Below, piece after piece: positions 8,112 through 14,554 of a stretch of 14,554 nucleotides of DNA. Source of the stretch: Bdellovibrionales bacterium (GTDB lineage Bacteria; Bdellovibrionota; Bdellovibrionia; Bdellovibrionales; DASUEL01); NCBI GenBank assembly GCA_050250255.1, contig JBFWOZ010000060.1:1-14554 (forward strand), given 5' to 3'. Position 1 is the stretch's first letter. Every line of letters starts with the position of its first letter. Below the pieces are notes generated by a model. The model was not told where the DNA came from. It saw only the letters and a list, made by a program, of their open reading frames with translations, and searched no databases. The position numbers were made by a program, and so were the translations under genes.

Positions 8112-8134
8112 ATTTGCTCGATAGAGAGGTTTCG

Positions 8135-8449
8135 ATGACCGAAGTTATACTTATGAAGTTAAGCACCACACTGCCTTATTTTTGTAAACAAAAAGAATGG
8201 AGTCTCTCTCAGCTTGCTCGAGAGTCAAAGGTGCCGATTCAAACTTTACATAACTGGGTTATTGGAAGCGGAAGAAAACATATCAGCATTGAACAGCTTA
8301 AAAAAGTGTCTGAGGCGCTTGAGGTGCCTTTGCATGAATTATGTTTTGGCACAAAAGACCCTTTTGAAAATTTCAGCGAAGAGGTTTTGCGCGAGCTCTT
8401 CTCGGGTGATATCCGGGTGACTTTACATAAGATTGAAAGATCGAAATAA
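8135..8449 (+). CDS. XRE-family HTH transcriptional regulator
   Basis: WSLSQLARESKVPIQTLHNW...IEQLKKVSEALEVPLHELCFG; SD GAGAGG before ATG 8135 (ATG 8153 is an alternative start). Confidence 0.88.
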   Translation: MTEVILMKLSTTLPYFCKQKEWSLSQLARESKVPIQTLHNWVIGSGRKHISIEQLKKVSEALEVPLHELCFGTKDPFENFSEEVLRELFSGDIRVTLHKIERSK

Positions 8450-10702: not shown

Positions 10703-11491
10703 GTGAATTTTTCAGGGATTATTGGCGTTATATCTGCTGCCGCAGTATTCGTTTTTGTCATTATCGAATCTGCGTCGGGACGAGAGATTTTTCTCAACTC
10801 TCATGCGATTATCATTGTAATGGGTGGCACTATGGCGGCCACACTTCTTTGTTTCCCTATAGGAACTTTGGTAACTCTTGTAAAAGTCTTTTTCCAAAAA
10901 ATCATTGGTAAACATAACGTACACCATAACGAAGTGATTGCTGAGGTTGTGGAACTTGCACGTGGTTACATCGAAGATCCGGCTTATTTACAAAACAATT
11001 ACGAAAAGATCAAAAATCCATTTTTGAAAGAAGCCGTTGAGTTAACCGTACAAAGTGGTATCAGTGCTTCAGAGGTAGATGCGATTTTAGAAATGAGAGC
11101 TCTTACACATTTTAAACGCTACGAAGGCGAAGCGGCTATTTTCAAAACGATCAGCAAATTTCCCCCAGCCTTCGGTCTAATGGGTACTACAGTGGGTATG
11201 ATTGCACTCCTTCAAGGGATCGGTACTCCTGACTCCTTTAAAACTATTGGTTCTTCAATGGCAGTGGGACTTGTCGCGACGTTTTATGGTATCGCAATAG
11301 CCAACCTAATTTTTATTCCTATGGGTGAGAACCTTTCAAAGCTCAATAAAGAAGATGAAGTGATGCGTGAAGTGGTGATCCAGGGGATCAAACTTTTAAG
11401 ACTCAAGAGCCATCCTTTGGTTGTTGAAGAGTACTTGAAGAGCTTCCTACTACCAAAAGAACGTCAATCGCTTCCTAAGCAAGCGGCTTAA
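10703..11491 (+). CDS. motA: MotA/PomA-family stator subunit
   Basis: SD AGGAGA plus GTG start; IIIVMGGT, NPFLKEAVEL, PPAFGLMGTTVGMI, MAVGLVATFYGIAIANLIFIP. Confidence 0.93.
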   Translation: MNFSGIIGVISAAAVFVFVIIESASGREIFLNSHAIIIVMGGTMAATLLCFPIGTLVTLVKVFFQKIIGKHNVHHNEVIAEVVELARGYIEDPAYLQNNYEKIKNPFLKEAVELTVQSGISASEVDAILEMRALTHFKRYEGEAAIFKTISKFPPAFGLMGTTVGMIALLQGIGTPDSFKTIGSSMAVGLVATFYGIAIANLIFIPMGENLSKLNKEDEVMREVVIQGIKLLRLKSHPLVVEEYLKSFLLPKERQSLPKQAA

Positions 11492-11502
11492 TAGGGTGAT
11501 GA

Positions 11503-12261
11503 ATGGCTGAACCAGCTAAGAAACTCAATCTTGAAGACGTGAAGAAGCTCAAGCTCGCGGAAGAGTCTTTGGCGGCGACGAGCATTCGTCATAAGCGTGA
11601 ACAGCTTCACGTGCATACAACTTCAGAGGAAGAGTCTTCTTGGCTTATCAGTTATGCCGACATGATGACTCTTCTTGTAGGTTTTTTTGTGATGCTTCAG
11701 TCTTTTTCTAAAATTGATAATACAAAATTCGAACAGATCAAGAAAGCCACGACAAAAGTATTTGGTGGAGAATACCAAGTTCCGTTTGAAAAGTTCTCTA
11801 AGTCGATGAAAGCCGTTGTCGGTGCCTCGGGAGCTGGGGATCAAGTGGTGTTTCATGAAACCGATGCGGGAGTCGATGTGACTTTTCGCGGAGCTCTCTT
11901 TTTTGATTCGGGCTCGACAGAGCTTCGCCAACAAGCAAAAGATCTTCTCAATAGTCTAGTTCCTATTATTACCGAACAAGCCCAAGATTTTGGCATCGTA
12001 GTTGAAGGACATACAGACAACAATCCCGTTTTAAAAGGCGGAATCTACCAGTCGAACTGGGAGCTTTCTAGCGTGCGAGCTTGTACGGTCGTACGAATTT
12101 TTGAAGAAATGGGTTTTGAGAGAACGCGATTAAAAGCACTAGGATGGGGGGACACGCGTCCTATTCTGCCAAATGCAGATGATAGCGGAAAAATCAATCC
12201 GGAGAATCAGTCTCAGAACCGAAGAGTTGTGATTAAAATTTTAAAAGATTTTGATAAATAA
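11503..12261 (+). CDS. motB: MotB-family stator subunit with OmpA-like peptidoglycan-binding domain
   Basis: WLISYADMMTLLVGFFVML (ion-binding Asp intact); FDSGS, VEGHTDN, SNWELSSVRA, QNRRVVI. Confidence 0.94.
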   Translation: MAEPAKKLNLEDVKKLKLAEESLAATSIRHKREQLHVHTTSEEESSWLISYADMMTLLVGFFVMLQSFSKIDNTKFEQIKKATTKVFGGEYQVPFEKFSKSMKAVVGASGAGDQVVFHETDAGVDVTFRGALFFDSGSTELRQQAKDLLNSLVPIITEQAQDFGIVVEGHTDNNPVLKGGIYQSNWELSSVRACTVVRIFEEMGFERTRLKALGWGDTRPILPNADDSGKINPENQSQNRRVVIKILKDFDK

Positions 12262-12282
12262 GCAGCAAATAGAGGACCCATA

Positions 12283-13431
12283 GTGAAATCACTTAGCATT
12301 GAAAAACGAATTGCTTTGGTGGGTGCAATCTTCGCCTTCGCGATTACGTTTCTTGCTTATCCAATCATCATTGGCGCCCTCAAGGATGGTTTTTTAGCTT
12401 ACAGTGTAAATGTTGTTGGCCAAGCAGTACAAAAAAAGATTGTGTCTACTGCAGATGTACTGAATCTTGGAGTAGATAAAGATCTCCTTGATGAATTTGT
12501 GACTTCTAATTACCCCGCACAGGGTTTTTTAGTTGATCAGCCGCACGAAACTCGTTTGGTCTATTTGAAAAAAGCAAATCCCGCACAGTTTGAACTTATT
12601 GACGCTCGACTTTCCTATTACGATATTCTCATTTCAAAAGCTTTTATCATTTTGGTGAGCGTATTCAGTGCTTTCTTGGGGGCCGGAACCATTCTTTATT
12701 TAATGGGGAAGTACGCTCTCGCGCCAATTAAGATTCTTCGAAGAACAACAGAAGACATTTTAGCAGGGCGTTTTGAAGTGAATTCGAGCTATCGAAGCTC
12801 AGATGAGATCGGAACTATGTTCGATGCTTTAAGACGCATGTGTGTGGAGATGGAAACTAAAGACAAGATGCTCGAAAAAATTTCGGAGCTTGCGACAACA
12901 GATGGGATGACGGGCCTTAAGAACCATCGTGCTTTTAAAGAAGAAATGACTCGCCAAATGAGTTTGATCCAACGGCATAAAGAGATGATTGGAATTTTGC
13001 TCCTCGACGTGGATCACTTTAAAAAGTTCAACGATACTTATGGGCATCAGCAAGGTGATGAGGTTTTGAAAACAGTCGGGAAGACTTTAAAGTCTATCAG
13101 TCGAGATTCTGACTTTGTGGCTCGTTATGGTGGTGAAGAGTTCGTTCTGGTTCTGCCAAAGACCGATGCAGTAGGTGTTGCAAAGATGGCTGAGAAAGTT
13201 CGCGCAAGCCTTGAAGCGGCGAAAGTCCCCATGCTCACGGATGTTACAAAAAATCTTTCGGTAACAGCAAGTGTAGGTGCTGTGTGTGTGGATGGCGCTA
13301 AACTTTTATTAGTTAAAGGCGGCGTGCCGATCTCTGTATTTATTGAAGAGGCCGATAAAAACCTTTACGTCTGCAAAAAGGCAGGCAGGAACTGTGTGAC
13401 GACGACTGAGTGGACGCCGGCGGCCGCATGA
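12283..13431 (+). CDS. Membrane diguanylate cyclase (2 TM, HAMP, GGDEF)
   Basis: HAMP LAPIKILRR...SSDEIGTMFDALRRM; TDGMTGLKNHR, DVDHFKKFNDTYGHQQGDEVL, I-site RDSD and active-site GGEEF; SD AGAGGA. Confidence 0.95.
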   Translation: MKSLSIEKRIALVGAIFAFAITFLAYPIIIGALKDGFLAYSVNVVGQAVQKKIVSTADVLNLGVDKDLLDEFVTSNYPAQGFLVDQPHETRLVYLKKANPAQFELIDARLSYYDILISKAFIILVSVFSAFLGAGTILYLMGKYALAPIKILRRTTEDILAGRFEVNSSYRSSDEIGTMFDALRRMCVEMETKDKMLEKISELATTDGMTGLKNHRAFKEEMTRQMSLIQRHKEMIGILLLDVDHFKKFNDTYGHQQGDEVLKTVGKTLKSISRDSDFVARYGGEEFVLVLPKTDAVGVAKMAEKVRASLEAAKVPMLTDVTKNLSVTASVGAVCVDGAKLLLVKGGVPISVFIEEADKNLYVCKKAGRNCVTTTEWTPAAA

Positions 13432-14201
13432 GTTCGTTCTTGAAATCTCTTTTATTAAGTTCCATTCTTATTTCTCACTCGGCTCTTGCGGACGTGGAAT
13501 TCCAAATGGGTTTTATGCTTGTGAATGGAATGCCAGTTTACAAAGCAAAAGAAATTCTTCCCTCTCAAATTCTTGTTTGCCCTAAAATGTGCGTGATAAA
13601 AATTAATGATTCAAGCGTAACAATTCGACGAGCCGGATTTACGACTTGGGAACAATTCCAAGTGATCAAAAAAGAAGTAGTGAGTACGCCAGATCTTTCA
13701 GCGGGCGGTGCGGGTGGTGCCGGAAGCGAATCGGGAGATCAAAAGTCTGATGTAGAAACAAAATCGACTCATCAAGATGAAGCTCCTGCAGTAGCAGAAG
13801 AAAAAGTAGAGGAAGTCGTAGAAGACGGTGCGCCTCCAGATCCGAATCCACGCTTTCCTCCTTCCGCACATCGATATCAACCAAGCCCATATCCTAAAGA
13901 CAACACACTTTTTCTTTTCCAGGCGGGAGAAAACGTCATTTTACGTCCAGCAAAAAAATGCAAGCAGACCTGCGTGTTCGTGGTGCAAAGTGAAAAGGGC
14001 AAAAGACAAGAAGCCCAATTCGCAGGCGGCAAAGACACAACAATCACAATCCACATCGACGCAAATTGGTCAGGCATTGTAAAATGGTCTCTCGTAGACG
14101 GCACAACCACAGTCAAAGGCCAATTCGAAGTCCAACGCCTAAGCCCTCAAGCCTTAAAAGCAGCCATCAAAGCCAACCGCTCCATCGAAATCCTCCCCTA
14201 A
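13428..14201 (+). CDS. Secreted two-domain hypothetical protein, translationally coupled to the DGC
   Basis: ATGA start/stop overlap at 13428-13431; signal peptide ending HSALA; beta-rich N-domain, a G/S/E/P-rich linker, then a beta-rich C-domain. Confidence 0.82.
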   Translation: MSSFLKSLLLSSILISHSALADVEFQMGFMLVNGMPVYKAKEILPSQILVCPKMCVIKINDSSVTIRRAGFTTWEQFQVIKKEVVSTPDLSAGGAGGAGSESGDQKSDVETKSTHQDEAPAVAEEKVEEVVEDGAPPDPNPRFPPSAHRYQPSPYPKDNTLFLFQAGENVILRPAKKCKQTCVFVVQSEKGKRQEAQFAGGKDTTITIHIDANWSGIVKWSLVDGTTTVKGQFEVQRLSPQALKAAIKANRSIEILP

Positions 14202-14221
14202 AAGGTCTCCGGGCCTTTTTT
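14200..14221. terminator. Short hairpin between convergent genes (terminator and/or REP-like site)
   Basis: AAAAGGTC-TCCG-GGCCTTTT followed by TT. Confidence 0.6.
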
Positions 14222-14225
14222 CTGG

Positions 14226-14554
14226 CTACAGCAAGTCAATTTCCAATGGATGTGGCCGCGAATCTATCTTCGGCAAACCAAATATTTTTCGGCGAAATCC
14301 TCTTTTGATTGCAAGATCGTATTCTGGATTTGATGGAGAGTTGAGCCATTTAAGGGTTCCTTCGAGATTAGAAAACAATGTGTAGTCTTGTTCGATCGGG
14401 ATAATTAATCTTGATTGACCTAAGAGGCCCTGAAGCGTGCTGTAAGGGTATTCTTCAACGTTTTGTACAATCCCAGCTTTCACTGGATTTCTATAATTAT
14501 ATTTATATGCGTTCAGAAAATAATGGTGAGACCGAATTTCGGTACGACGAAATC
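14226..14554 (-). CDS. REP-associated tyrosine transposase (RAYT, Y1 HUH family), C-terminal part; truncated by the window edge
   Basis: The frame is open to the window end and reads FRRTEIRSHHYFLNAYKYNYRNPVKAGIVQNVEEYPYST, matching the RAYT/IS200-like Y-x-x-x-NPVKAG...Y-x-W/Y-S-S/T motif. Confidence 0.85.
   Translation of the reverse strand, partial: FRRTEIRSHHYFLNAYKYNYRNPVKAGIVQNVEEYPYSTLQGLLGQSRLIIPIEQDYTLFSNLEGTLKWLNSPSNPEYDLAIKRGFRRKIFGLPKIDSRPHPLEIDLL

Follow-up and report, generated by a model that had tools for sequence, protein, structure and literature searches.

The 14,554-nucleotide contig JBFWOZ010000060.1 of a Bdellovibrionales bacterium (assembly GCA_050250255.1), referred to here over its full length as the window, ends in a host gene, a terminal inverted repeat (TIR), and part of a gene for a RAYT-like transposase, and our analysis concerns the third codon positions of the host gene where it runs into the repeat. 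The host gene (13428..14201, forward strand) encodes a hypothetical protein of 257 aa with a hydrophobic stretch near its N-terminus (a GTG at 13410 would make 263 aa), which matched no Pfam or NCBIfam family and received no name from an Atlas search. The TIR (14199..14229, forward strand, read from its outer end inwards) is one of 19 family A1 ends in the genome; at its outer end it overlaps the stop codon of the host gene (14199-14201), and its inner part provides the stop codon of the transposase gene (14226-14228). The latter is the 3′ half (108 aa) of a gene for a Y1/HUH tyrosine transposase of the RAYT/TIRYT type (14226..14554, reverse strand; open reading frame [ORF] 14226-14552) that is cut by the contig end, beyond which the second TIR end of the element also lies.

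The transposase fragment is 61% identical to a full paralogue on contig C1, which is bordered by a TIR pair. The H-x-H motif and Y119 are conserved and align with those of Escherichia coli RayT; the window fragment carries the catalytic tyrosine, and its HUH motif, which falls beyond the contig end, was observed in the C1 paralogue. The full paralogues score 50-68 bits and the window fragment 26 bits against NF047646, thus not reaching its curated cut-off of 80 bits, and the paralogues stand far above their scores with the IS200 model (at most 25 of 55). The initial annotation had described a hairpin next to the RAYT gene; a palindrome is indeed present at 14200-14219, although it is weak as single-stranded DNA (-5.5 kcal/mol, z -0.5) and is in fact the outer end of a TIR of the kind that borders RAYT-like genes. 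Rfam gave no match in the window, and no terminator-like site was called at the window TIR.

Repeat families were derived from frequent 18-mers, and five motifs served to locate the ends, yielding 129 TIR ends in the genome in five families (A1, A2, B, C, and D). In all families the outer end begins with AAGGTRC and in many cases overlaps a TAA stop codon, and most TIRs are paired head to head across a spacer of a few to about 130 nt (60 of the 72 gene-abutting ends have a partner within 200 nt). Full Y1 transposase genes are enclosed by such pairs on contigs C1, C8, and C16. The tetranucleotide GTAG is found on the outward strand of A1 and A2 TIRs, several bases off the stem, and is absent from that place in families B, C, and D. 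By analogy with known enzymes, binding and nicking of the single-stranded repeat by the RAYT at a C|T-type site is putative here. Directly outside many TIRs lie short partial duplications of the TIR outer end and recurring tails of a C-run plus AA, which differ between close genomes (e.g. G000 C16:28006-28032, L037, L074, and L095) and are a sign of DNA processing at these ends. C-runs of 2-13 nt between terminators and TIRs hold 43 C and 3 G, with orthologous loci counted twice, and may be element-derived because the same 12-mer recurs at unrelated loci, which is weak evidence.

A strand-polar substitution bias outside the repeats

Our recount of A- or C-ending codons in the host gene reproduced the gradient of the initial annotation exactly, with 6/20 at 13428-13487, then 12/20, 13/20, 16/20, and 15/20 in successive bins of the rising part (13860..14099, forward strand), two exceptions in the last bin being TGG, and finally 33/34 in the saturated zone (14100..14201, forward strand), where the reading frame stays open. 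Across the rising part, T>C and G>A states build up and four-fold degenerate sites hold about as much A as C, while the four-fold sites of the last 33 sense codons hold 13 C, 4 A, 1 T, and no G. The skew is thus chiefly a gain of C, with A prevailing only where the choice is between A and G. Among 2721 non-overlapping ORFs of at least 100 aa in this genome, called mechanically by longest ORF so that starts may be wrong, 14100-14201 is the top-scoring 34-codon window. The genome mean for the last 34 codons is 0.50, and the distribution has a heavy upper tail: 35 genes score at least 26/34 where 4 are expected, and 6 score at least 31/34 where 0.001 are expected. For about a dozen of the 35 outliers, no adjoining repeat was found. 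Distant homologues of the host gene (22-29% identity) occur in 6 of 60 relatives, where seven copies without a TIR score 9-20 of 33 and the sole TIR-followed copy of the eight scores 24 of 33. The host gene is a passive record of the bias and lies outside the element proper.

The skew follows the TIR and not the RAYT gene. The 72 genes that end within 60 nt of a TIR outer end average 21.7/34, compared with 16.9 for the 2572 others, and scores of at least 26/34 are reached by 14 of the 72 and by 19 of the 2572 (p=2e-14). The earlier reading of a local, strand-specific skew that peaks at the hairpin and is linked to a RAYT-associated repeat holds, with the refinement that genes at other TIRs share the skew; a neighboring RAYT gene is not required, since most skewed genes abut RAYT-less TIR pairs. 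Scores range over 16-33 for family A1, 11-32 for A2, 20-31 for C, 15-27 for D, and 12-25 for B. With distance from the repeat, the C fraction at four-fold sites falls from 0.50 at 0-50 nt to 0.34 at 50-100 nt, 0.28 at 100-200 nt, and 0.24-0.28 beyond (background 0.24), A drops to 0.15 nearest the repeat, and the skew fades across 100-150 nt. On the strand read into the repeat, the order of bases is C (about 4), A (about 1.8), and T and G about equal (at 1), as obtained from 99 genes pooled from the window's genome and a related genus. The preference for C over T holds in all eight neighbor contexts (odds 2.7-4.2), as does that for C over G (3.0-5.2); A over G varies more by context (1.1-3.0), and the odds are 1.66 for A over T and 1.11 for T over G.

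The skew depends on an intact repeat. It is stronger at TIRs nearer to their consensus (rho -0.31, p=0.009) and unrelated to the strength of the downstream hairpin (rho 0.11), and solitary TIRs with weak hairpins are as skewed as long palindromes (23.6 vs 21.3). At solitary TIRs, genes on the outer side show.69 against.44 (32 genes) and those on the inner side.57 against.50 (16 genes). The RAYT genes' own ends reach 0.50 against 0.46 over 61 loci, and the last codons of the RAYT gene in the window are without skew. No skew was found at 97 genes followed by ordinary terminator-like hairpins (16.9) or at 614 convergent genes (16.9). Near TIRs, possession of an intrinsic terminator makes no difference to the skew of a gene (14 genes that have one,.57 vs.48; 35 genes that lack one,.58 vs.47). 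The 90 nt at gene ends near TIRs fold less as RNA. The direction of replication is indifferent, with 23.5 vs 15.0 of 33 where the inward strand is leading and 23.6 vs 17.0 where it is lagging.

The same association was observed in relatives. The best 80 related RAYT loci, nearly all from Bdellovibrionales or close names, include 61 with a detectable TIR pair, and the AAGGTRC outer motif is present at 50 of these 61. At such loci, 57 of 62 host genes ending at their TIRs are richer in A/C at their ends than inside (0.68 vs 0.49), in keeping with the earlier expectation of skew at other RAYT loci; p-values across relatives are overstated because kin are not independent. The skew in G007, which belongs to another family, is moderate and weaker (16 genes,.55 vs.47). 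In E. coli K-12, where 300 kb in six stretches with 94 REP units (defined from the rayT locus) were covered, no skew was found at 31 REP-abutting genes (15.1 vs 15.7 for 200 others).

We further observed that the skew follows the polarity of the DNA rather than the transcript. In a sample of 93 flanks from three genomes of genus g31, with orthologues partly counted twice, non-coding DNA upstream of genes that point away from the TIR holds A.35-.38, C.28-.30, G.14-.17, and T.18-.21 on the inward strand, compared with.29/.23/.22/.27 (A/C/G/T) in the TIR-free control, and its G+T is about 0.35 within 80 nt of the TIR as against 0.49 upstream of TIR-free genes. The effect in the same comparison for the window's genome is small: C/(C+G) is 0.56 at TIRs of families A and C, compared with 0.50 at those of B and D and 0.51 in the control. 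At the mutS-mpl junction of genus g31 (L030 and L150-L179), 7 of the 29 genomes counted, G081 being left out, have a RAYT element some 70 nt upstream of mutS. The 66 nt upstream of mutS average 0.77 A+C in the 7 element-bearing genomes, which fall into two separate clades, and 0.61 in the 22 without the element, one of which also reaches 0.77; short conserved motifs in this stretch are unchanged, and the free positions are shifted. At a RAYT locus compared between an element-bearing and an element-free genome, the two flanks show 19:0 and 9:0 differences in the predicted direction. Some sister lineages without the mutS element have retained flanks rich in C, which may be the fossil of an element since lost.

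Apart from the TIRs and palindrome family G, the window's genome (G000) contains four or more other families of palindromes, in which the arms differ from copy to copy and an asymmetric core is conserved (e.g. C9:74818-74939, C19:14668-14788, and C15:8711-8809), and none of which lies within 1 kb of a Y1 gene; family F comprises 13 copies. Family E is bimodal (15 genes, 19.3, p=0.12), and families G, H, and J showed no skew over the 1-4 genes available for each. A member of family G is found in the window itself (2493-2601), a 109-bp palindromic element unrelated to the TIRs, with 21-bp perfect arms and an asymmetric core common to four other copies, and its 4 neighboring genes are without skew. 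A core related to family G lies between two strongly skewed convergent genes on contig C67 (31 and 29 of 34).

Ongoing substitution and candidate causes

For the direction of change, two genomes about 88-98% identical over the compared loci were polarized with a third as outgroup, using 14 TIR-ending genes and, as a control, the ends of 254 TIR-free genes. Within the last 120 nt, T>C and G>A occur at 2.2 times the control rate (26/216 vs 470/8600), and A>C at four-fold sites is found in 8/68 as against 23/1048. Beyond 120 nt from the TIR, rates equal the control. Forward changes up 2.2-fold, reverse changes at half the control rate, and a total that is not raised together indicate that the bias is current and directional rather than plain hypermutation. 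Three DNA runs from one study gave contigs without usable population variation near the window TIR.

Taken together, 100-150 bases of host DNA outside each TIR carry a strand-polar substitution bias that favors C, then A, over T and G on the strand read into the repeat, depends on an intact repeat, and is still running. We give an even chance to the explanation that nicking by the RAYT at the TIR, followed by strand-biased local resynthesis or repair, likely by a Pol I devoid of proofreading, causes this bias. Here, a RAYT-type nuclease would repeatedly nick one strand at the TIR, presumably the strand read out of the repeat to which it binds; the 3′-OH of the nicked strand could then prime nick translation by Pol I, and the host would re-copy or repair the adjoining patch with strand bias. 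Mispairs of the G:T type and G:A would be fixed as G or T on the outward strand and as C or A on the other, and one RAYT may act in trans on all copies of the repeat. TnpA-REP nicks 5′ or 3′ of REPs and leaves a 3′-OH that has been proposed to prime host polymerases (PMC8266576, PMC3333891). Error-prone Pol I yields, on the new strand, 32 A>G vs 9 T>C and 140 C>T vs 29 G>A (PMC3167613, Table 2), and, if the outward strand is the new one, its gain of G and T matches this direction. As judged from domain matches, the host PolA (869 aa; G000 C29:29147-31756, L048) appears to have no recognizable proofreading domain: PF01612 gave no match at E<=0.1, and Klenow is matched only from chain residue 187, the exonuclease part remaining unmatched. 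MutS and Rho are both encoded in the window's genome. The window's genome does encode a stand-alone PF01612 protein, about 190 aa long, as do many of the 87 genomes, out of 301 in the order, that have a match. The PF01612-bearing polymerases of G007 and G232 were considered as host Pol I and rejected, as they have no 5′ nuclease part and look like mobile-element polymerases, and the within-order comparison of Pol I types thus failed. The family A polymerases at L413:2581-5310 and L414:2462-5086, which have an exonuclease domain at the N-terminus but lack a 5′ nuclease, both follow a long ORF that is ParB-like by eye and are probably mobile-element modules.

Several observations weigh against this explanation. 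Reversions (C>T and A>G) are halved near TIRs (x0.5; 22/758 vs 510/8812, p=0.0005), and the total substitution rate is no higher than in the control (0.071 vs 0.081). Such a pattern is expected under weak selection but not from an input of errors by itself; the lowered reversions call for either weak selection or one-sided mismatch resolution in the patch, and they suggest the latter as a further part of the process. In an equilibrium test on pairwise differences (19, 9, and 8 genes, the pairs not being independent), the last 123 nt of the largest pair show 77 differences, a value that falls between the 81-95 predicted by added mutation and the 51-56 and 46-50 predicted by selection and one-sided repair, respectively. 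The published Pol I spectrum is dominated by C>T, whereas A>G dominates here on the outward strand. For 15 flanks with a TIR in one of two genomes, changes at coding third positions within 120 nt are not directional overall (35 vs 36), two further loci being clear (8:0 and 7:1) and two opposite (0:7 and 3:7), although several of the "empty" sites had repeat remnants or other palindromes, or a poor non-coding alignment. In genes pointing away from the TIR, no gain of G is seen at four-fold sites of the sense strand (the nearest bin comprising 52-67 sites). Skew is weak at family B even though a RAYT of its own goes with it, while palindrome family F, which is unrelated to the TIRs and lies more than 1 kb from any Y1 gene, is also skewed, if less strongly (14 genes, 20.1 vs 16.9, p=0.0009). 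The absence of skew at E. coli REPs is in line with the explanation, as E. coli Pol I proofreads, but the RAYT group of E. coli is a different one too.

Much of the same evidence bears on weak selection, of about 1.5 units of Nes per site, for a C-rich, G/T-poor, unstructured strand running into the repeat, whether through Rho loading on sense or antisense RNA entering the element or through keeping the single-stranded flank from disturbing the repeat. Raised forward changes, lowered reversions, and no rise in the total fit a mutation-selection balance, and within the nearest 60 nt the 24 differences observed lie between the 15-17 expected from selection and the 30-39 from added mutation, a result that leans to selection or one-sided repair. 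In further support, the skew is strongest in genes transcribed into the repeat, Rho is present, and the last 90 nt fold less as RNA. The zone of 60-123 nt leans the other way, with 53 differences against 50-56 for added mutation and 36-39 for selection. Rho sites prefer pyrimidines and tolerate U, and a rut site is a C-rich, G-poor, weakly structured segment of 60-100 nt, located on the transcribed strand before the point of termination. The TIR flank agrees in being C-rich, G-poor, and weakly structured, and differs in that it favors A over T and gives T no advantage over G, and in that the bias upstream of mutS occurs on the non-mRNA strand, where the mRNA strand turns G/U-rich. The bias is also present in genes that already have an intrinsic terminator and missing from the ordinary-terminator genes, the convergent genes, and the E. 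coli REPs. We therefore consider selection a serious but rather unlikely cause, with perhaps one chance in four.

A DNA-level footprint left at palindromic repeats by host proteins such as Pol I, gyrase, or hairpin nucleases, with no part for the RAYT, would fit the weaker skew at family F and the bimodal family E, and binding of Pol I and gyrase to E. coli REP/BIME is named in reference titles of PMC3333891. Such a footprint is nonetheless improbable in our view, as the skew ignores hairpin strength, the near-perfect family B palindromes are the weakest, families G, H, and J are without skew over 1-4 genes each, and the effect depends on TIR orientation and match to the consensus. The initial annotation had also raised the possibility that selection purges the flank of the short motif at which the RAYT cleaves. 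For known enzymes this motif is CT or CA, cut as C|T or C|A and for the most part close to the REP (PMC8266576), and C is depleted on the outward strand; however, C is favored over T and over G in every 5′ and 3′ context and no single dinucleotide accounts for the skew, making motif removal very unlikely. Least credible of all is that the elements insert into DNA already rich in C and A. Some orthologues without a TIR equal the TIR-bearing copy in skew, and the 0.77 of one element-free mutS flank and the 19 high-scoring TIR-free genes point the same way, but directional substitution goes on after insertion, which largely refutes it. The TIR-free homologues of the host gene and the average of the 22 element-free mutS flanks also speak against it, and skewed empty sites are equally expected once an element has been lost.

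Relation to known systems

The element is a TIRtron, the layout of which was already described by Di Nocera et al. (2013; PMC3733652): a Y1 gene lies between long inverted repeats, which are self-complementary in part and can extend into the gene ends, and the same repeats are dispersed as singles and dimers. The main type of TIR described there carries GGGGWSAS, in place of AAGGTRC here, although TIRs without GGGGWSAS are also listed. With REPtrons and REPIN-RAYT systems of E. coli and Pseudomonas (PMC3333891, PMC8266576, PMC5581495, 10.1101/279083, 10.1101/2021.07.10.451892), it shares an HUH and tyrosine enzyme, paralogues that are divergent and non-duplicating and go with separate repeat families, and intergenic doublets, often at stop codons. 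It differs in that the window-type RAYT is 23% identical to E. coli RayT, has a C-terminal extension, and falls under the NCBIfam cut-off, that GTAG is confined to A1 and A2 and set back from the stem, and that the E. coli K-12 REPs lack flank skew. The main text of PMC3733652 contains no "Bdellovibrio" and, in the parts covered, mentions no effect on flanking host sequence, and that of 10.1101/279083 contains neither "skew" nor "Bdellovibrio". At the level of record listings and abstract openings, we found no description of the flank effect in the literature outside subscription papers, and the TIR lists in the supplements of these two papers could include the repeat family. As far as the literature was searched, the effect on host flanks is thus undescribed, and its cause is probably DNA processing at the repeat.

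The closest parallels to the bias itself are error-prone Pol I at the ColE1 origin (PMC3167613) and the engineered EvolvR nickase-Pol I system (PMC13510055), in which a strand-polar bias likewise decays from a fixed start with A>G and C>T on the new strand. The EvolvR window is about 60 bp (review PMC13510055), and the reach of the flank bias matches such a short nick-translation patch. In these systems the mutation rate is greatly raised, whereas here the net rate is not raised, reversions are down, and A>G exceeds C>T; the TIR effect is, moreover, natural, chromosomal, and spread over about a hundred sites. Replication gives the leading strand a G+T (keto) skew. The outward strand at a TIR thus resembles a small leading strand, but the TIR bias is confined to about 150 nt, is far stronger, and is the same in leading and lagging orientation.

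A broader proposal, which we advance tentatively and hold at slightly under an even chance, is that RAYTs, together with the repeats scattered through the genome, act as a natural system for targeted rewriting at sites genome-wide. Each repeat end would mark a nick, from which one-sided repair or a Pol I that lacks proofreading steadily rewrites some 150 bases of neighboring genes and promoters. If so, the rewriting would leave a clock of element residence and of in vivo RAYT activity that persists as a fossil after the element is lost. The role of RAYTs in living cells, the strand that they cut, and the reason hosts keep them are open questions in the RAYT literature, and a measurable footprint, present at about a hundred places in each genome, opens their activity in vivo to testing, as its polarity names a strand, its range gives a patch length, and its strength may indicate the age of an insertion. 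In addition, the ends and promoters of host genes can have their codon usage and replication skew overridden by a small mobile repeat, which matters for analyses of codon selection and horizontal transfer. Should selection be the cause instead, the repeats would have an RNA or single-strand DNA function as yet unrecognized.

Other features of the window

Upstream of the host gene, 10703-13431 carries a motA/motB-like pair followed by a HAMP-GGDEF diguanylate cyclase, the stop codon of which overlaps the start of the host gene. A mobile stretch made up of 245-2408 and 8114-8449 holds HTH regulators, a resolvase (633-1358), and a short fragment at 2163-2408 labeled transposase-like by look, and high-depth contigs join across 2306-2428 in all three runs. 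At positions 118, 8648, 8668, and 8708, contigs of runs X1 and X2 carry another letter, reflecting either assembly differences or a close strain.
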